NCBI GenBank assembly: GCA_016930955.1
Contig: JAFGFR010000211.1
Span: 1 to 31,194 of the forward strand
Source: Victivallales bacterium
Lineage (GTDB): Bacteria > Verrucomicrobiota > Lentisphaeria > Victivallales > JAADHT01
Length of the DNA stretch: 31,194 nucleotides
Direction of reading: 5' to 3'
Shown: positions 1,509 to 15,306 of the stretch, piece after piece
How the letters are laid out: each line of letters begins with the position of its first letter
How positions within the stretch are numbered: position 1 is the first letter of the stretch
Position numbers and translations under genes: made by a program
The notes under the pieces: model-generated
Told to the model about the DNA's origin: nothing
Databases searched by the model: none
Seen by the model: only the letters and a program-made list of their open reading frames with translations

Positions 1509-1923
1509 AAAACGCCCCTTTGCCCTCGAAGAATCCGTGGGTCTCAATCATATGGATATTCAGGTCGGTCCAGACAAGCTGCTTTCCGATGTCCATGCGT
1601 TCGGCGATGGTGATGCGTTTTCCATAGGCACCTTGATGCGGCCACGGACATACAAGGCTGCCCTTGAAGTCTTCACTTTTGACGCGCAGTTTCCCTGGCT
1701 CGGCTTCGATCCAGCCGCCAAGGCGGGGTATGGCCAGTTCCGTCAGTTCCCGCATCCTCGCGGCAACCCGAGCGGCAGTCAGCCCGAGTTTTTCCAGTCG
1801 GGAGCAGTCATCATCGACGACTTCCGCGGGATGCCGTGTATCGGTTCCCATGAACCCCCCGGCGACCAGTTTGGTCGAGCGAAGAATTTCTTCGAGTTTT
1901 TTTTCTTGTGGCGACTGTTTCAT
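1444..1923 (-). CDS. Uncharacterised 159-aa soluble protein, last gene of the Nqr/Rnf-like operon
   Basis: Starts 15 bp after the nqrF stop on the same strand; protein-like composition with CPWPH and HGFFEGKG motifs. Confidence 0.75.
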   Translation of the reverse strand: MKQSPQEKKLEEILRSTKLVAGGFMGTDTRHPAEVVDDDCSRLEKLGLTAARVAARMRELTELAIPRLGGWIEAEPGKLRVKSEDFKGSLVCPWPHQGAYGKRITIAERMDIGKQLVWTDLNIHMIETHGFFEGKGAFFRVEPAEVAQILFEGLKTAQM

Positions 1924-1938
1924 TTGGCATTCTCTGAT

Positions 1939-3051
1939 TTACGCGAATTTATCGAAATAGATTTTATCTTCTGGCATCCCCAGCGCGACAAAGACTTTGA
2001 TCGCGGCATCGATCATGCCGGGGCTGCCGCACAGGTAGCCTTCGTAGCCGTCCAGGCTGTCAAATTGCCGCTGGACCGCCTCGGTCACCAGGCCCGTTTC
2101 ACCGTCCCAGCTTTCGTCATCTTCTGGACTAGCCACGACCGGGGTAAAATCGAATCCCTCCAGGGCATCCTCGAAGGCTTCCATTTCGTCCGCCATGCAG
2201 AGGTCTTTGACTGCATTGCCGCCGAAGAAGTATTTGATCTGTCGGTTGATATGATTGTTCTGCATGTGATGCAGTATCGACACAAACGGCGCCATGCCGC
2301 TACCGCCGGCAACGAACACCATCGGCGCATCCGTGTCACTCAAGTGGAAATCGCCGTAGGGTCCGTTCATTCGGACGGGGTCGCCCTCTTTGAGGAAGTC
2401 AAAGCACCAGGTCGTGCAGATACCGTTGGGCACGCGGCGAATGATCAAGTCGACAATATTGTCGGCACTCGGGTCGGAGGCAATCGAGTAGGCCCGATAA
2501 ACCTCCTCGCTGTTGTCTTGGTATTGGGGGCACAGCAGCTGGAGGTACTGGCCGGCGGTGAATTTGATGACTGGCGGATCCTTGAGATCAAAACGAAACC
2601 GCTTCATGTCATACGTCAAGTCCTTGATCTCGGCACAGACTGCATGAAACTCTTTGACATTGAACAATTCATCGGGAATTTCGATCGCGATATTGTTGCG
2701 CACTTTGACCTGACAAGACAGGCGGATATTGTCGGCTTGTTCTTTTTTGGTCAAAAACGGGGTTTCGGTTGCCAGTACGGGCCCGGCACCATCAATCACC
2801 TTGACCTTGCAGACACCGCAGGTCCCGCGTCCACCGCAGGCACTGGGAATAAATATCTTTTCCTCCCGCAGAACCGTCAGCAACGATTCCCCGCCCTGGA
2901 CGTTCAGTTCTTTTTCATCGTTGACGATGATTTTACAGGGGCCGTAGTTGACGACGTATTTTTCACAGAACACCAAAATGGCAGCCAATGCAGCGCCGAT
3001 TGAACTGATAATTAATATGATAAATGCAAACTCTAGAATCGCCTGGAACAT
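1939..3051 (-). CDS. nqrF: NqrF-like NADH:acceptor oxidoreductase subunit (N-terminal TM anchor, 2Fe-2S, FAD- and NAD-binding domains)
   Basis: IPSACGGRGTCGVCKV...RLSCQ 2Fe-2S motif, RAYSIAS FAD motif, GPYG, AGGSGMAP, YLCGSPGM, C-terminal DKFA; TGATG overlap with the upstream gene. Confidence 0.9.
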   Translation of the reverse strand: MFQAILEFAFIILIISSIGAALAAILVFCEKYVVNYGPCKIIVNDEKELNVQGGESLLTVLREEKIFIPSACGGRGTCGVCKVKVIDGAGPVLATETPFLTKKEQADNIRLSCQVKVRNNIAIEIPDELFNVKEFHAVCAEIKDLTYDMKRFRFDLKDPPVIKFTAGQYLQLLCPQYQDNSEEVYRAYSIASDPSADNIVDLIIRRVPNGICTTWCFDFLKEGDPVRMNGPYGDFHLSDTDAPMVFVAGGSGMAPFVSILHHMQNNHINRQIKYFFGGNAVKDLCMADEMEAFEDALEGFDFTPVVASPEDDESWDGETGLVTEAVQRQFDSLDGYEGYLCGSPGMIDAAIKVFVALGMPEDKIYFDKFA

Positions 3052-3650
3052 CAGTTCAACACCCCTGTAAACCCGATAAATGCCAGAGCCATCAATCCAG
3101 CGATGATCAGAGTGATGCCGGGCCCGCGCAGTCCTTCCGGGATGCGGGATTCGTTAAGCCGTTGACGGATGCCGGCCATCGCAATGATAGCCAGGAACCA
3201 GCCGACACCGGCACCGAAACCCCAGCCGATGGTGACAATGAACGAGTATTCGCGGATCACCATAAACAGCGACGCACCCAGAATCGCGCAGTTGACCGTA
3301 ATCAACGGCAGGAAGATACCGAGGCTCTGATAGAGCTTGGGTGAGTAGCGGTCAATGACCATCTCAACGAACTGCACGAACGCGGCGATGATGATAATGA
3401 ACAGGATAAAGCGGAAGAACTCCAGTTCCAGCGGCACCAGCACATAACGATAAGCCAGCCAGTTAAGCAGCGTCGTACAGGTCATCACGAAGATGACCGC
3501 CCCCCCGAGTCCGGATGCGGTTTTGACCTCGCGCGAGACGCTGGTGAACGGGCACATGCCCAAAAATGTGGTCAGCAGGATATTTTGTGTAAAAATGGCC
3601 GCGAAGCAGGTAACCATCGCCAGCCAGACTTCTGCGCCGACAGCGTTCAT
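3051..3650 (-). CDS. nqrE: NqrE/RnfA family membrane subunit
   Basis: FLGMCPF, GIFLPLITVNCAILG and GFGAGVGW motifs. Start reassigned to MNAVG (3650), which overlaps the upstream stop as ATGA. Confidence 0.88.
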   Translation of the reverse strand: MNAVGAEVWLAMVTCFAAIFTQNILLTTFLGMCPFTSVSREVKTASGLGGAVIFVMTCTTLLNWLAYRYVLVPLELEFFRFILFIIIIAAFVQFVEMVIDRYSPKLYQSLGIFLPLITVNCAILGASLFMVIREYSFIVTIGWGFGAGVGWFLAIIAMAGIRQRLNESRIPEGLRGPGITLIIAGLMALAFIGFTGVLN

Positions 3651-4267
3651 GATTTCGTTTCCCTCATTTTGATCGAGCGGCACAGCCAGATGATGGACGC
3701 CAGCGCGAAAAACGCACCCGGCGGCATGACCATGATGATCCAGTTGTCCCAATATGCCGTTGAAAAGTACGGCATATTATAGCCAAGCAGACTCCCCATG
3801 CCGAATAATTCACGGAAAACTGAAATAGCCAGCAGGACAAATGAATAACCCATCCCGCTGAAGAGCCCGTCAATGAACGCCGGCCGCATGGGATTGGCGC
3901 CAGCGAATGCCTCACAGCGACCCATGATGATGCAATTGGTGATGATAAGACCGACAAAGGGGCCGAGATTACGGCTCATCTGAGGCCAGTAAGCCTTGAG
4001 CATCAAATCGACGATTATCACATAAAAGGCTATGACCAGCGTTTGGACCATCATGCGGATATTTTTGGGTGTCCAGTCTCGCAAAAGCGAGACCGTCATG
4101 CAACTCATGGCCGTCACCAGCGTCAGCGACACACACATCACCAGCGTATTGAGTACGACATTGGTTACCGCCAGCGTGCTGCAGATGCCCAATACCTGAC
4201 GGAAAATGGGGTTGTCACGCCAGAGGCCGTCCAGCATAATTTGCCTTGTGGGTTTGGCAGGGCTCAT
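3647..4267 (-). CDS. nqrD: NqrD/RnfE family membrane subunit
   Basis: DNPIFRQVLGICSTLAVT, GLIITNCIIMGRCEAFA and MPPGAFF motifs; ATGA coupling at both ends. Confidence 0.9.
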   Translation of the reverse strand: MSPAKPTRQIMLDGLWRDNPIFRQVLGICSTLAVTNVVLNTLVMCVSLTLVTAMSCMTVSLLRDWTPKNIRMMVQTLVIAFYVIIVDLMLKAYWPQMSRNLGPFVGLIITNCIIMGRCEAFAGANPMRPAFIDGLFSGMGYSFVLLAISVFRELFGMGSLLGYNMPYFSTAYWDNWIIMVMPPGAFFALASIIWLCRSIKMRETKS

Positions 4268-4875
4268 GGCGTGATCTCCTTAGCCTGCATCGCATCCAGC
4301 CATGCCCGAATATCCCGGTTCATCAGTGCCTCTAGGCGAATGCTGGTCTGTGTTGCGCCGGTGACGGCGTGGACTTTATTGTCATCAAGTGTCCGAGCCG
4401 CCGGCACGATGCCGATGGGTTCGTCGCTGTACTCAATTTTTTTATCGATAAATTGCCGGCGAAATTCATCCTCGTCAATCCGTGCGCCCAGGCCGGGGGT
4501 TTCCTTCTGCTCGTAGAAGGCTACTCCTCTAATGGTTTGGCAGTCGGCGGCAATTCCGATGATGCCCCGGATCTTATCCCAAAAGCCCTGTCCTTCAAAT
4601 GGGACGGCATAGCCGGCAAGCTGACCGTCTTTTTTATAGCGATACGCGCCGATGCGGTCGTCCTTTTCAAATCGTTCAGTGAAGATATCATGGATCTGCC
4701 GGTTGTCCTGATATTGGATTTCCGGGAAGGCCTGCACCACGGCCCGTTCGAAACCAAGCTGTTCGTTGACTTCGACCCGATGACGCGTAAGCTGTGCCAG
4801 CCCGATCAGTATCGAACTGAAGAATGCCGTGATCACAAACATATAGATGATCGGATAGTATGGCTTGTCTTTCAT
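4264..4875 (-). CDS. nqrC: NqrC/RnfG family FMN-binding subunit
   Basis: N-terminal TM helix, GQGFWDKIRG, QKETPGLG, and VTGATQTS (covalent FMN Thr motif). Confidence 0.88.
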   Translation of the reverse strand: MKDKPYYPIIYMFVITAFFSSILIGLAQLTRHRVEVNEQLGFERAVVQAFPEIQYQDNRQIHDIFTERFEKDDRIGAYRYKKDGQLAGYAVPFEGQGFWDKIRGIIGIAADCQTIRGVAFYEQKETPGLGARIDEDEFRRQFIDKKIEYSDEPIGIVPAARTLDDNKVHAVTGATQTSIRLEALMNRDIRAWLDAMQAKEITP

Positions 4876-6221
4876 GCGGACACCTCTTTGGGTTTATGCC
4901 TGTCCTTAAACGCATTGATGCCATAATCAATGATCGGCGCGAACATATTGCCCAGAAGAATCGAGAACATCAACCCTCCGTTAAAGATCGAAAAATTACG
5001 AATGACCATGGTAGCGGCAGCAATGAGAATGCCGTAAAAAATCCTTCCCGGCTCCGTCCGTGGAGAACTTACCGGGTCGGTAGCCATAAAGAACGCCCCG
5101 AACAAAAATCCACCGCCTAAAACGGCCGGCCAGGCACCGGGAACCGGCTTGATGCCACACCAGAACAACACTTGGTTCAACGCAGCATAGGTGATTATGA
5201 CGGAAAGGATCGTCGTACGGCTGGCAGTTTTTGTCCAGTATAGATAAACCCCGCCGATCAAGATGAGAACCACGCTGGTAACACCCATGGTCCCACTGAG
5301 GCGCCCCAGGGTCAACGCATTGAAAAGCGTTGATTTGTCAACCTGAATCGTTTCGTAATCGGCAATTTCAAAAGGAATTTCAGCTGAATACACTGTCTTT
5401 TCGGCATCGGGGTCTAATGTCAGATTGCCCGATTTGAGACGGGCCATTGGTGTGGCTCCGGTCGTAACTATTGATCCATCCGCGCGGGTCGCAGTCGTCC
5501 ACTGCGTCAAAGCGCCCATGGGGCCTTCTGCGGCGGGAAGCCATATCCCGGTCAAAGCAACCGGGAAGCAGACATAGACAAAACAGCGCCCTGCCAGTGC
5601 AGGGTTGAAAATATTCCGCCCGAAGCCGCCAAATACTTCTTTGGAAAAGATGACGGCGAATCCCATTCCGACCGCCAGCACATGCCAGCCCACACCGGGC
5701 GGCATCACCAGCGCAAACAGCACGGCTGTCACCAGGACCGCTTCCGAGACCGGTTCTTTCCGGCGGCGGCAAAAAAACCATTCGAGCAAGAAACCCCAGA
5801 GACAGCAAAAAACAATCATCGCCAGAGAACGCCATCCGAAATAATAGACCGACCCAAACACGCAGGGCATCAAAGCAAGCAATACCTTCCTCATCGCCGG
5901 CTGTCGCCGCATGAGGGATTGTTTCTCTTGTGAGCCAGTTTCGAAACTACACGTGGCCGCGCGGCCTGCCATTTTGGATGCGAGGCCACGCCGATGCGGA
6001 AGTGGGCATGCCTGCCTGGTCTGCCCCGACCGATCCGGCGTGGCATTCGCGCCAAAAGAGCTTGCCGCCCAAAGGGTTGAGGCGGAGGCACAGCATACGC
6101 CACGGCGAAATGGCCAGCACAGACAGCTTAAAGTATGCACCAGCCATTTCGCCGCACCGCCTGCCGCGCCTGCGCTCCCAATGCGGTTCACGCGGAGTTT
6201 TGAAACTGGCTCTTGTGCCAT
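4872..6221 (-). CDS. nqrB: NqrB/RnfD family membrane subunit carrying an in-frame 95-codon repeat insertion after codon 3
   Basis: KEVFGGFGRNIFNPALAGR, TTGATP (FMN Thr), FMATDPVSSP and FSILLGNMFAP motifs. GAAGGGA SD-like sequence upstream of ATG 6221. Residues ~4-98 are translated repeat DNA; ATG 5912 is an alternative start. Confidence 0.85.
   Translation of the reverse strand: MAQEPVSKLRVNRIGSAGAAGGAAKWLVHTLSCLCWPFRRGVCCASASTLWAASSFGANATPDRSGQTRQACPLPHRRGLASKMAGRAATCSFETGSQEKQSLMRRQPAMRKVLLALMPCVFGSVYYFGWRSLAMIVFCCLWGFLLEWFFCRRRKEPVSEAVLVTAVLFALVMPPGVGWHVLAVGMGFAVIFSKEVFGGFGRNIFNPALAGRCFVYVCFPVALTGIWLPAAEGPMGALTQWTTATRADGSIVTTGATPMARLKSGNLTLDPDAEKTVYSAEIPFEIADYETIQVDKSTLFNALTLGRLSGTMGVTSVVLILIGGVYLYWTKTASRTTILSVIITYAALNQVLFWCGIKPVPGAWPAVLGGGFLFGAFFMATDPVSSPRTEPGRIFYGILIAAATMVIRNFSIFNGGLMFSILLGNMFAPIIDYGINAFKDRHKPKEVSA
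5932..6212. mobile_element. 281-bp MITE-like element (copy A) with ~19-bp terminal inverted repeats and 4-bp TSD TTGT
   Basis: Left end GAGCCAGTTTCGAAACTAC, right end GGAGTTTTGAAACTGGCTC; TTGT at 5928-5931 and 6213-6216; no transposase. Confidence 0.85.
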
Positions 6222-6304
6222 CTTTTAGAATCCCTTCAAATTATCAGCATCAACACATATAAGACAAAAATAAACCATGAACCTAAATATTAGCACTGTC
6301 ATCT

Positions 6305-6420
6305 GGCCATGGCGGGGCGACATGGCCCTACAACCCCGAATTGTGCCTGCCACGGCATAGCCTTGGCGAAGCCTGGAACCGTGTTGTGATTGCATCCACG
6401 GGTAGTTTTGAGATTTGCCA
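6305..6420. repeat. Degenerate repeat mosaic downstream of fprA: GGCCATG/CATGGCC hairpin, CGCCAAGGCTA REP-like module and a decayed right TIR
   Basis: Hairpin at 6305-6327; CCTGCCACGGCATAGCCTTGGCGAAG at 6346-6371; CCACGGGTAGTTTTGAGATTTGCCA at 6396-6420 matches the end of copy B (CCACGGGTAGTTTTGAAATTGGCTC). Confidence 0.65.
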
Positions 6421-7602
6421 CTACACAATGCCTAAAGTTCTGTGCCTGTCAAGAATATTGTCGGCCAATTCATCCAGAGCTGAATAAGTCTCCTCGGAAG
6501 GCATCCCTTTGGCCAACACCGGCTCGAATGCCTCGCATTTCAGGTTCCCCATGACTGCGGTCAATTGTTCGATCATTTTGCTGCCCCAGCCGTAGGAGCC
6601 GATAATGCCGACGAATTTGGTTTTTGGTCTGAGGGCATTGACCAGTGCGGCACAATAGATTGCCGATGGATGGGCTCCGACCAGAACCGTAGGGGAACCT
6701 AGGACGACAGTCGCCGCGTCGACCAATTCGATCACGATCTCTCCGATGTCGGCCACAGTCAGATTGAACAGCTTGACACCGACGCCACGGCTCATCAACG
6801 CCTCCACGAGATACTCTGCCATCTTGCGGGTACTGTCATGCATGGAGACGTAAGGGATGACGACCATGTTGCTGACCTTATCTTCGTTGATCCAGTCTTT
6901 GTATGCATCCACGATCAGCGCCGGGCGACTATAAACCGGACCATGGCTTGGCGCGATCATCTGGATATCCAGATCTTCAAGTTTTTTCAGATTGCCACGG
7001 ATTGAACCGCGGAACGGCATCATGATCTCTCCATAGTAGCGTCTAGCCGCTTCGAGCACGCGATGTTCGTCATCGACATACAGATTGCTGGCTGCCTGGT
7101 GCGAGCCGAAAAAGTCGCAGGAGAATAGAATATTGTCTTCCGGCAGCCACGTGCTCATCGTTTCCGGCCAGTGCACCCACGGGGTATAGATGAATTGCAG
7201 CGTTTTGTCTCCCAACGACAAGGTTTCACCGTCCTGAACCTCGATGAAACGATCCTCTCCGATATGCAGATGGTCCATCAACATTGATTTGCATTTGGGA
7301 TTCGTGACGATCTTAGCGCCCGGGTACACCCGCAGCATGTCCTGAAGACTGCCGGAATGATCCTGTTCGGCGTGATGACTGATGATGTAGTCGATCTTGT
7401 CAGCGCCAGCCTTGACAAGATGATCGATCAGCATCTCGACCTTGGTCGGGTCGACAGTGTCCAGCAATGCACTTTTCTCACTGCCCTTGATGAAGTAGGC
7501 ATTATAGCTGGTGCCATCCGGCAGCGGAATCAGTTCGTCAAACAGACGCCGATCCCAATCCTGAACGCCGACTTCATAAACATTCTTAACAAGTGTTCTC
7601 AT
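6421..7602 (-). CDS. fprA: FprA-family flavodiiron protein (metallo-beta-lactamase plus flavodoxin domains; O2/NO reductase family)
   Basis: DGTSYNAY, HHAEQDHSGS, HWPET, DFFGSH, APSHG, GSPT and GSYGWG motifs; GAGGTG SD upstream. Confidence 0.92.
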   Translation of the reverse strand: MRTLVKNVYEVGVQDWDRRLFDELIPLPDGTSYNAYFIKGSEKSALLDTVDPTKVEMLIDHLVKAGADKIDYIISHHAEQDHSGSLQDMLRVYPGAKIVTNPKCKSMLMDHLHIGEDRFIEVQDGETLSLGDKTLQFIYTPWVHWPETMSTWLPEDNILFSCDFFGSHQAASNLYVDDEHRVLEAARRYYGEIMMPFRGSIRGNLKKLEDLDIQMIAPSHGPVYSRPALIVDAYKDWINEDKVSNMVVIPYVSMHDSTRKMAEYLVEALMSRGVGVKLFNLTVADIGEIVIELVDAATVVLGSPTVLVGAHPSAIYCAALVNALRPKTKFVGIIGSYGWGSKMIEQLTAVMGNLKCEAFEPVLAKGMPSEETYSALDELADNILDRHRTLGIV

Positions 7603-7614
7603 AATTTCACCTCG

Positions 7615-7634
7615 GAGCCAGTTTCAATTGGCTC
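7615..7634. repeat. Collapsed 20-bp copy of the MITE termini (GAGCCAGTTTCAATTGGCTC)
   Basis: Left-end GAGCCAGTTTCAA is fused directly to right-end TTGGCTC; forms a 7-bp stem GGAGCCA/TGGCTCC at 7614-7635. Confidence 0.65.
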
Positions 7635-7646
7635 CATAAATTGCCT

Positions 7647-9161
7647 CTACTGCTTACCATGAGTCTGAGCAGCCGCCTTCCTGCGGTATAGCTCGATGCT
7701 CATGTCAACCTCGCGTCTTACATGGGGATATTGTATCCCGCTCGAGGCATCCAGCAGAAGCTTTATCGCCTCGTCGTACTGTTCCTTCACGGCAAGCATT
7801 TCCGCTTGTACCCTGACCTTCCGGTAGTTTTCCATCATAGCTTCCTGCAACTCCTTCTCCTGTGTGAGCTGAACTATCTTCTGCTCCAGCCCCGACTCGG
7901 CGGGAAGACCCTTGCTCTTGAGCTTGGCCTGTTTGTATAATTCGATCATTGACTCGTATTCTCCAGGATGATCGGCCATGAAACATTCAGCCTTCTTTAT
8001 CGCTTTTAACGAAGAATCCTTCTTGTGGTGATCCTGGATGAGCAAGGCCGCCACCCCTGCTATTGCGAGAAGCAACAGATAAATGAAGATGCTCGAGGTC
8101 GCGCTTCCGGAAGATTTGGAGACAGCGACTGGCAAGGGCACTTTCGGCGAAGGCGAAGCGCGGCGACGCCCCTTGTTCACGGTCAGTGCCTTCTGCCTCT
8201 TCCTCGGCTTGCGCTTCGGGTCAATGGCCCGAAGCGCAGCTTGTGCATCCTCGATGAACCCCTGCCATGAGTCATATCGATCGGCAGGTGTCTTGCCCAT
8301 CATCTTGCGCATTATCTCCACAGTCGCTTTTGTGACCTCTGCTGTGGGGTTGCGGGAAAGAGGCTCGGGGAAGGGCTCAGTGGTATGCATCTCAATGATC
8401 TCGACGACATCCGGCGCATCGAAGGGAGGCACCCCGACAACGAGGTTGTAGAGTGTCGCGCCAAGGGAATAGAGGTCGCTGCTCCAGCTAAGTCTTGCCG
8501 CCACTGTCTGCTCGGGGCTCATATAGAAGGGGGAGCCGAGAATATGATCCTCGCCGCCGGAGCTTTCGCCAATATACTGGGCAATGCCCATGTCCATCAA
8601 AAAGATTTCGCCGCTCTTGTCCAGCATCAGATTGCCCGGCTTGATGTCCTTGTGGAGAAGCCCGTAAGACTCCCAAGCGTAGCTCAGCGCATGCCCGATC
8701 TTTATACCGATGAGCAGTGCCTCGTTCTCCGGGATAAAGAACTTCCTCGACAGCACGTGCTCGAGGTCCTCGCCTTCGACATAGGCAGTGGCGAGATAGT
8801 AGGTCCCCTCGTGCTCGCCGGCATCTATGGCAGGTATTATATTGGGATGGTTGAGCCTTCCGGAGACCTGTGCCTCATTGAGGAACTGCTCGACCGAGGC
8901 CTTGTTGGAGGTCAAGGATTTAAGCAGCACCTTGAGCGCGACAAGCCTTTCCATGGAAATCTGCCTGGCTAGATATACGTTCCCCATCCCCCCCCTGCCG
9001 ATGATGCGAATGATCTCGAACCCGCCCATGATCGTTCCTTGCGGAAGGTCTTTCTCCGGCAGCGAGACAGTCCCGTTGCAATGCGGACAGGCAACTATTT
9101 CAGAATCGCCTTCATCGCTCTCGAACACCTTGTGGCAGTGCGGACAGTCATATGATCTCAT
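7647..9161 (-). CDS. Hanks-type Ser/Thr protein kinase with N-terminal Zn-ribbon, one TM helix and a C-terminal helical domain
   Basis: CPHC...CPHC, GRGGMGNVY, VALK, HKDIKPGN, DMG, GSPFYMSPE, SDLYSLG; hydrophobic IFIYLLLLAIAGVAALLI. Confidence 0.92.
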   Translation of the reverse strand: MRSYDCPHCHKVFESDEGDSEIVACPHCNGTVSLPEKDLPQGTIMGGFEIIRIIGRGGMGNVYLARQISMERLVALKVLLKSLTSNKASVEQFLNEAQVSGRLNHPNIIPAIDAGEHEGTYYLATAYVEGEDLEHVLSRKFFIPENEALLIGIKIGHALSYAWESYGLLHKDIKPGNLMLDKSGEIFLMDMGIAQYIGESSGGEDHILGSPFYMSPEQTVAARLSWSSDLYSLGATLYNLVVGVPPFDAPDVVEIIEMHTTEPFPEPLSRNPTAEVTKATVEIMRKMMGKTPADRYDSWQGFIEDAQAALRAIDPKRKPRKRQKALTVNKGRRRASPSPKVPLPVAVSKSSGSATSSIFIYLLLLAIAGVAALLIQDHHKKDSSLKAIKKAECFMADHPGEYESMIELYKQAKLKSKGLPAESGLEQKIVQLTQEKELQEAMMENYRKVRVQAEMLAVKEQYDEAIKLLLDASSGIQYPHVRREVDMSIELYRRKAAAQTHGKQ

Positions 9162-12952: not shown

Positions 12953-13053
12953 AAGCCGGTTTCAAAACTCCGCGTGAACCGCGTTGGGAACACCGTCTGC
13001 CGTGCCTCCACCCCAACCCTTTGGGCGGCCACGGGTAGTTTTGAAATTGGCTC
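12953..13053. mobile_element. 101-bp MITE-like element (copy B)
   Basis: AAGCCGGTTTCAAAACTCCGCGTGAACCG ... CCACGGGTAGTTTTGAAATTGGCTC; starts 2 bp after the lpxC stop; no intact TSD (AGGA vs TGAA). Confidence 0.8.
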
Positions 13054-15234: not shown

Positions 15235-15306
15235 GAGCCGGTTTCAAAACTCAGCGTGAACCATGTTGGAGACGCAGGCGCGGCAGACGGCGCGGCGATA
15301 TGGCTC
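15235..15306. mobile_element. 72-bp internally shortened MITE-like element (copy C)
   Basis: GAGCCGGTTTCAAAACTCAGCGTGAACC...GCGGCGATATGGCTC; shares the left module with copies A, B and D; its end overlaps the AraC stop codon. Confidence 0.75.

Follow-up and report, generated by a model that had tools for sequence, protein, structure and literature searches.

A MITE within the first codons of nqrB in a Victivallales bacterium and the codon-neutral length of its family

The nqrB locus and its insertion

The window analysed here is the whole 31,194-nucleotide stretch of contig JAFGFR010000211.1 (assembly GCA_016930955.1) from a Victivallales bacterium. Positions 1939-6221 hold an nqrBCDEF operon in which nqrB comes first and is followed on its 3' side by an FMN_bind gene, two Rnf-Nqr genes and an NqrF-type Fer2/FAD/NAD gene; all five nqr open reading frames (ORFs) are intact and have coupled starts. 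The nqrB product matches PF03116 (NQR2_RnfD_RnfE) at 2.5e-81, NqrB chain 7xk3_B at 3e-34 and RnfD chains, and shares 80% identity with its nearest homologue. No nqrA or rnfC/rnfB partner was found in the window or in the orthologous loci L051-L056. The start region of nqrB contains a MITE with terminal inverted repeats (TIRs) and a target duplication (TSD), and the features of the gene and its start region are as follows.

4872-6221, minus strand: NqrB/RnfD-family ORF with a 95-codon insertion, 449 aa, open throughout; PF03116 match over residues 107-435
5889-5916, minus strand: RNA hairpin in which one internal AUG pairs with the other; 5875-5931 folds at -19.6 kcal/mol (z -3.13)
5892-5894, minus strand: conserved internal Met (AMRKV), at which the public gene call (340 aa) starts
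5910-5912, minus strand: ATG from a lineage-specific Leu-to-Met change, candidate secondary start, 19 nt past the element
5928-5931, unstranded: TSD copy 2, TTGT on the plus strand (ACAA on the gene strand), a perfect 4-bp match to copy 1
5932-6212, minus strand: MITE, 281 bp, read in its +1 frame (EPVSKL...SFETGS) within the nqrB ORF
5932-5955, unstranded: distal TIR arm, 24 nt, pairing with 6189-6212
5970-5972, minus strand: in-frame ATG within the element (ASK-M-AGR), present in the family consensus too
6189-6212, unstranded: TIR arm near the native ATG, 24 nt, 88% complementary to 5932-5955
6213-6216, unstranded: TSD copy 1, TTGT on the plus strand (ACAA on the gene strand)
6219-6221, minus strand: native nqrB start codon (MAQE...); orthologues begin MAQ/MTK...LLRKQPAMRKV
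6228-6240, minus strand: upstream motif TTTGAAGGGATTC with SD-like AAGGGA, present in orthologous loci L051 and L052 as TTTGAACGGA(T/C)TC
6240-6267, minus strand: promoter-like site (TTGTCT, 16 nt, GATAAT), weak, one site where 0.7 are expected

On the minus strand, ATG GCA CAA leads into the element and ACAA GAG AAA CAA TCC CTC ATG follows it; the insertion point lies after codon 4 of nqrB as counted from the native ATG. The added DNA amounts to 281 + 4 = 285 bp, which is 95 codons. A preliminary description of this DNA had reported the element, its inverted repeats and TTGT flanks, and an nqrB frame that stays open across exactly 95 additional codons; all of these coordinates hold. It had further proposed that excision restores a protein of about 354 residues with a MAQEKQ-type N-terminus. 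This is borne out, as removal of the element and one TSD in silico yields MAQEKQSLMRRQPAMRKV, a 354-aa protein that matches the orthologue N-terminus MAQAQKKQTLLRKQPAMRKV and the orthologue upstream motif. The excised DNA aligns to two orthologous loci (L051 and L052) across both the start codon and this motif, which reads TTTGAA(G/C)GGA(T/C)TC across the orthologous loci, and the nearest homologues (80-65% identity) begin with MAQAQKKQTLLRKQPAMRKV or close variants. The orthologue alignment that the same description had suggested as a search for an empty site recovers the N-terminus MAQ..K..LLRKQPAMRKV, including in orthologues whose gene calls start at MRKV. The SD that it had seen upstream of the native ATG (GAAGGGA) contains the SD-like AAGGGA of the motif kept in the orthologous loci and, in line with its remark that ATG 5912 has no clear SD, neither internal AUG is preceded by an SD-like sequence. 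Judged from the excised-sequence alignment, the nqrB site is empty in orthologues, which is evidence of mobility. An Rfam scan of 5500-6700 returned only sub-threshold miRNA/sRNA noise on the hairpin, and a terminator search at the element found no U-tract and no terminator-like site. Because the element is one of a large multi-copy family with TIRs and TSDs (see below), its presence in nqrB lies far beyond chance, and the sequence evidence confirms the MITE at 5932-6212 as a real mobile-element insertion in coding sequence.

Measured against the open frame, the public nqrB call starts 110 codons too far in, and neither the native start nor the element is part of it. Similarly short gene calls occur in several nqrB orthologues that lack the insertion. 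A native start at MRKV, as suggested by 341-aa orthologue calls, was considered and rejected, as all of these genes have a longer conserved N-terminus in frame upstream.

The surroundings of nqrB differ from those in relatives. In L051-L056, the stretch from the flavodiiron gene to nqrB holds genes for desulfoferrodoxin, ferritin and rubrerythrin, with rubrerythrin preceding nqrB in the orthologous loci; the window lacks all three. A degenerate element end (GGCAAATCTCAAAACTACCCGTGG) within window positions 6222-6420 starts right after the flavodiiron stop codon and, because it adjoins that stop codon where the genes are missing, an element-mediated deletion of the desulfoferrodoxin, ferritin and rubrerythrin genes is suggested. 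In the relatives, nqrBCDEF is part of a cluster of oxygen-defence genes (Fur-like regulator, rubrerythrin, AhpC, flavodiiron protein, desulfoferrodoxin, ferritin, rubredoxin, G6PD and Rex), and this setting hints that the operon may supply electrons for oxygen detoxification. Among nqrB homologues, the closest (75-80%) carry Phycisphaerae or Planctomycetota labels, and the two genomes that share the element, the same-genus genome G001 and G015, were deposited as uncultured Victivallales MAGs. The only nqr operon in the G001 assembly is 49% identical (contig C323 versus G001:C45). Either the nqr operon was acquired horizontally or orthologues went unassembled in incomplete MAGs.

The element family

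The assembly to which the window belongs (G000) is a 2.7-Mb MAG that is 72% complete. The 294-bp stretch spanning the insertion has 54 matches in this assembly, where full-length copies are 87-91% identical; a more sensitive blastn search with the element returned 392 HSPs, and 554 element ends were counted with an 18-nt end motif at no more than three mismatches. In an alignment of 18 near-full-length copies with their flanks, homology ends exactly at GAGCCAG...CTGGCTC and the copies are surrounded by varied 4-bp duplications (TTCG, CTTA, AACC, CAAG, ATTT and others). Perfect 4-bp TSDs flank 43 of the 109 paired ends in G000, without a target consensus. Family members range from 50 to 281 bp and fall into size classes of 50 bp (19 copies), 74, 86, 206 and 281 bp (15 copies), with a 281-bp consensus from which copies diverge by 6.8% on average. 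Five copies lie in the window itself, at 5932-6212, 12954-13029, 15235-15305, 28461-28566 and 31111-31194. The family is as abundant in G001 and G015 as in G000, and is essentially absent from the 38 other relatives searched.

The family thus combines TIRs, a TSD of fixed length, high copy number, small size, lack of a transposase and filled and empty orthologous sites. On these features it is classed as a non-autonomous TIR transposon (MITE) that has every hallmark of such elements bar an identified parent IS. Of the TIR pairs longer than 300 bp, none has either a TSD or a transposase. A Pfam search with DDE_Tnp_1 and DDE_Tnp_4 found DDE_Tnp_1 genes in G001 only, none of them bounded by family ends; ISs often go unassembled in MAGs. 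On one G001 contig, family ends lie near a 541-aa transposase ORF and do not bound it. Most family copies are intergenic and gene interiors are strongly depleted: after in-silico excision, at least 100 open codons on both sides are found at 3 of 90 sites, versus 50% of random sites.

Open frames and codon-neutral length

The family consensus is stop-free in three of its six frames (+1, -1 and -2), and of the 17 other aligned copies, 12 are free of stops in the +1 frame, the one that nqrB uses. The idea that three open frames are special was rejected: at least three occur in 13% of dinucleotide shuffles of the consensus. Variability among the 17 copies has no codon-position periodicity (p 0.49), and the peptide therefore fails the test for family-wide coding selection.

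The length of the elements is more distinctive. Length plus 4 is divisible by three in 72 of 99 complete elements of up to 300 bp, far above one third, and in 34 of the 43 elements with perfect TSDs. This holds for all five size classes with at least four copies (50, 74, 86, 206 and 281 bp) and for 24 of 44 distinct lengths (p 0.003, a value that treats descent-related copies and classes as independent). A small sample from G001 and G015 points the same way, with 10 of 20 such lengths, and 9 of 13 among elements with a TSD match of at least three of four positions. Frame preservation is a property of the family and is not peculiar to the nqrB copy. The preliminary description overrated the in-frame fit in nqrB: because frame-neutral length is family-wide and half of the frames are open, an open frame at nqrB is expected, not remarkable, and says nothing about selection.

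In-frame copies in other genes

Further copies lie in frame in at least four unrelated genes of G000, all in the same +1 frame (EP.SKL...SFE.GS).

G000:C325:634-914 (L009): NuoE/F-like flavoprotein (PF01512), 281-bp copy with TSD, mid-gene
G000:C119:2404-2567 (L062): TMTC-like glycosyltransferase with TPR, 164-bp copy adding 56 codons at residue 191
C296: transglutaminase-like membrane protein, 281-bp copy after codon 9 (MTSAEIKPT), before the TM anchor
G000:C240:2326-2411: apbE lipoprotein, 86-bp copy right after the Met-Lys start

The NuoE/F-like site is empty in sister G001:C241 (L074), where ...ITPCDI is joined directly to KDSDGPVEAF... in an orthologue that is 94% identical downstream. 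About 170 nt before the copy, a single base is missing from a G-run of the G000 gene, which is either a true frameshift or a low-coverage assembly error; because of this deletion the NuoE/F-like precedent may be a pseudogene. The two halves of the TMTC-like protein lie in one uninterrupted ORF of 555-608 aa in orthologues from five relatives, and a paralogue is present on C309. The public gene call for the transglutaminase-like gene on C296 reads through the copy.

The apbE case spans two genomes. The apbE gene of G001 (L084, G001:C69, about 1310-1520) carries a copy of 206 bp at this very site, flanked by the same TSD (GAAG/GAAA); the two copies differ in size by 120 bp and are open in both G000 and G001. 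The sequence 3' of the element continues with K-A/V-IKWRF, a hydrophobic core and GCG, with no Met before the signal-peptide core; ApbE homologues without the element start directly with MK..K... Because the apbE copies are open and have no downstream start, they argue that ribosomes of this lineage do read through family elements. The peptide added in apbE would be removed with the signal peptide. The earlier characterization of the nqrB insertion as tolerated and translatable gains from the in-frame copies in these four genes; for the nqrB copy itself, translation is a step that we infer.

Translation of the interrupted nqrB gene

The most likely reading, which we favour with some reserve, is that ribosomes continue to begin nqrB at its native ATG (6221) and translate across the element. 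A 281-bp MITE with 24-nt TIRs and a 4-bp TSD would have transposed into codon 4 of nqrB, the first gene of nqrBCDEF, and the element plus TSD would add exactly 95 codons in one of the family's three stop-free frames. Because whole codons are added in a stop-free frame, the gene would not be broken. Ribosomes would start at ATG 6221 in a region that is predicted to be unstructured until the distal TIR is transcribed, and read-through would yield an NqrB with a 95-residue basic (pI about 10.4), non-hydrophobic cytoplasmic N-terminal tail. Their passage would moreover open up the long MITE hairpin and sustain expression of nqrC-F, which are translationally coupled. Use of the native start, tolerance of the tail and a working complex are inferred from several lines of evidence. 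The upstream motif and the five nqr ORFs are intact, and the 71 nt of the native start region made before the distal TIR fold weakly (-11.1 kcal/mol, z +0.41), and the internal AUGs are locked in their hairpin. In-frame precedents exist in the apbE, TMTC-like, NuoE/F-like and transglutaminase-like genes. The inserted peptide has a pI of 10.35 and a net charge of about +9 (12 K+R versus 3 D+E), is rich in Ala, Ser and Arg/Lys with six Cys, and matched no family in a Pfam search. It lacks a TM-like segment, with a maximum 19-residue Kyte-Doolittle mean of 0.99 versus 2.1 for TM1, and would form a cytoplasmic tail ahead of TM1 rather than a new membrane segment. Tail length varies naturally in NqrB: the Vibrio protein has about 57 residues before TM1, and query residues 8-33 align to Vibrio 58-83. 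Logan contigs from a metatranscriptome and from the sediment metagenome that is the source of the MAG were placed on positions 1900-7700, where the organism has a depth of about 5-7x; contigs from the RNA library lie on nqrB with 0-1 differences and may be DNA carry-over. Several observations weigh against read-through. Once the transcript is complete, the TIR stem begins at +10 of the native AUG as part of a -208 kcal/mol fold of the whole element (z -8.45) and should hinder initiation when the RNA has folded, and the Leu-to-Met ATG past the element resembles compensation for a lost start. The absence of codon periodicity, the 12 of 17 other copies that are equally open and the 1-nt deletion in the NuoE/F-like gene also count on this side.

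A possible, though less likely, alternative is that the insertion cut off the native start and that NqrB is made from ATG 5912 or Met 5894, minus 8-14 non-essential residues. The MITE would then serve, in line with the leader that the preliminary description had offered as its other option, as a long structured 5' leader that determines how stable the mRNA is and how much the operon yields, and that may be cut by RNase III. The TIR stem and the stable fold of the whole element fit such a leader, and at the position of Met-5912, 92 of 99 homologues have L, the other 7 have F and none has M, which makes the Leu-to-Met change unique at an L/F-only position. The new ATG also follows an A-rich stretch shortly past the element, and gene callers pick Met-5894 both here and in several orthologues. 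Set against this, the 5889-5916 hairpin pairs one internal AUG with the other and has no equivalent in the two orthologous mRNAs folded, and the lack of SD-like sequence noted above applies to both AUGs. The Leu-to-Met change is a single conservative one and may be neutral, and restart is impossible in apbE and in the mid-gene copies, whose frames stay open.

Read-through in nqrB could also be part of a broader pattern, in which selection has shaped the family to be codon-neutral and translatable (lengths 3n-4) as a PVC-group counterpart of the Rickettsia RPEs, regularly supplying N-terminal and internal extensions to membrane and redox proteins. We regard this broader proposal as doubtful. 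On this view, the 3n-4 lengths, seen across independent size classes and in sister genomes, would serve to make each insertion with its 4-bp TSD add whole codons, and copies in gene starts such as the apbE signal peptide would persist for species-level times.

Decay of the operon is unlikely. It would mean that nqrBCDEF was inactivated or strongly reduced, is dispensable and is becoming a pseudogene, with the open frame due to luck. Landing in an open frame is indeed likely by chance (about 3 of 6 frames, with some 70% of copies still open) and the locus is rearranged, with the three genes between the flavodiiron gene and nqrB missing and an element remnant in their place. The operon may be accessory, since G001 has only the 49%-identical one, and another copy-bearing gene has a possible frameshift. 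These points are opposed by the intact nqr ORFs with their coupled starts, the identity of NqrB to its nearest homologue together with its full-length Pfam match, and the RNA-library contigs that match nqrB; the perfect TSD indicates that perhaps little time has elapsed, which cuts both ways. Misplacement of a repeated element into nqrB by mis-assembly is highly improbable: depth is low and Logan contigs break at the repeat, with none of those listed bridging either junction or joining an empty site, but both flanks are homologous to the orthologue nqrB start region and rejoin to the codon with a family-typical 4-bp TSD, and this rules against an artefact because a chimeric join could not give such exact rejoining and a TSD.

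Comparison with known elements

In-frame MITE insertions are already known from Rickettsia RPEs, intragenic ERIC and Coxiella QMITEs (PMC10969869, PMC5896051, PMC3184786). The ERIC/IRU elements of enterobacteria (Delihas 2007, cited in PMC10969869 and PMC3184786) resemble the present family as small TIR repeats with open frames that are occasionally intragenic and co-transcribed; they differ in being about 127 bp long, of other sequence and largely intergenic. QMITE1 and QMITE2 of Coxiella burnetii (PMC5896051) likewise form very stable hairpins and code for basic peptides; they extend proteins by overlapping the ends of genes or by lying in frame in ORFs. Their sequence, host and size are different, and their reported effects are mostly on 3' ends or hypothetical genes (PMC5896051). 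Copies of the present family, by comparison, interrupt nqrB and apbE at their first codons, and others lie inside conserved enzymes.

The closest parallel is with the RPEs (Ogata et al. 2000, 2002), which PMC10969869, in summary form, describes as repeats of about 100-150 bp encoding a conserved peptide. According to that summary, they too are hairpin-forming short repeats, many of them in frame in unrelated genes, where a peptide is added and the host protein is kept, and several RPE copies lie in metabolic and respiratory genes. The elements described here are, in contrast, classic TIR/TSD MITEs of 50-281 bp that are mostly intergenic and whose peptide has no sign of coding selection, and their host is a free-living PVC-group sediment MAG instead of an obligate intracellular alphaproteobacterium. 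The family is RPE-like in that its copies have entered several unrelated ORFs in frame, but it does not pass the test for a peptide under selection.

The Correia elements (NEMIS/CREE) of Neisseria are an abundant co-transcribed MITE with TIRs and a TSD, and processing of their hairpin can alter downstream expression. They provide the model for a structured leader upstream of a restarted nqrB. Correia elements have a TA target duplication, a length of 100-155 bp, and IHF and promoter functions, and we know of no frame-preserving insertions of them into gene starts. To our knowledge, no family-wide codon-neutral length has been described for ERIC/IRU either.

Implications

The nqrB locus is a clean natural case in which a mobile element has entered a respiratory-complex gene within its first codons and left the frame intact, and the parallel cases in the same genome turn a single anecdote into a family property. 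In-frame MITE insertion itself is already known; the aspect that is possibly new is the codon-neutral length across the family. Gene annotation of such MAGs is systematically wrong at element sites, as the public nqrB call illustrates by hiding the native start and the element. Should the inserted peptide be made, this family would be a case of selfish DNA contributing protein segments in bacteria other than Rickettsia and Coxiella; should it not be made, the locus would show a gene regaining a start codon after an insertion.
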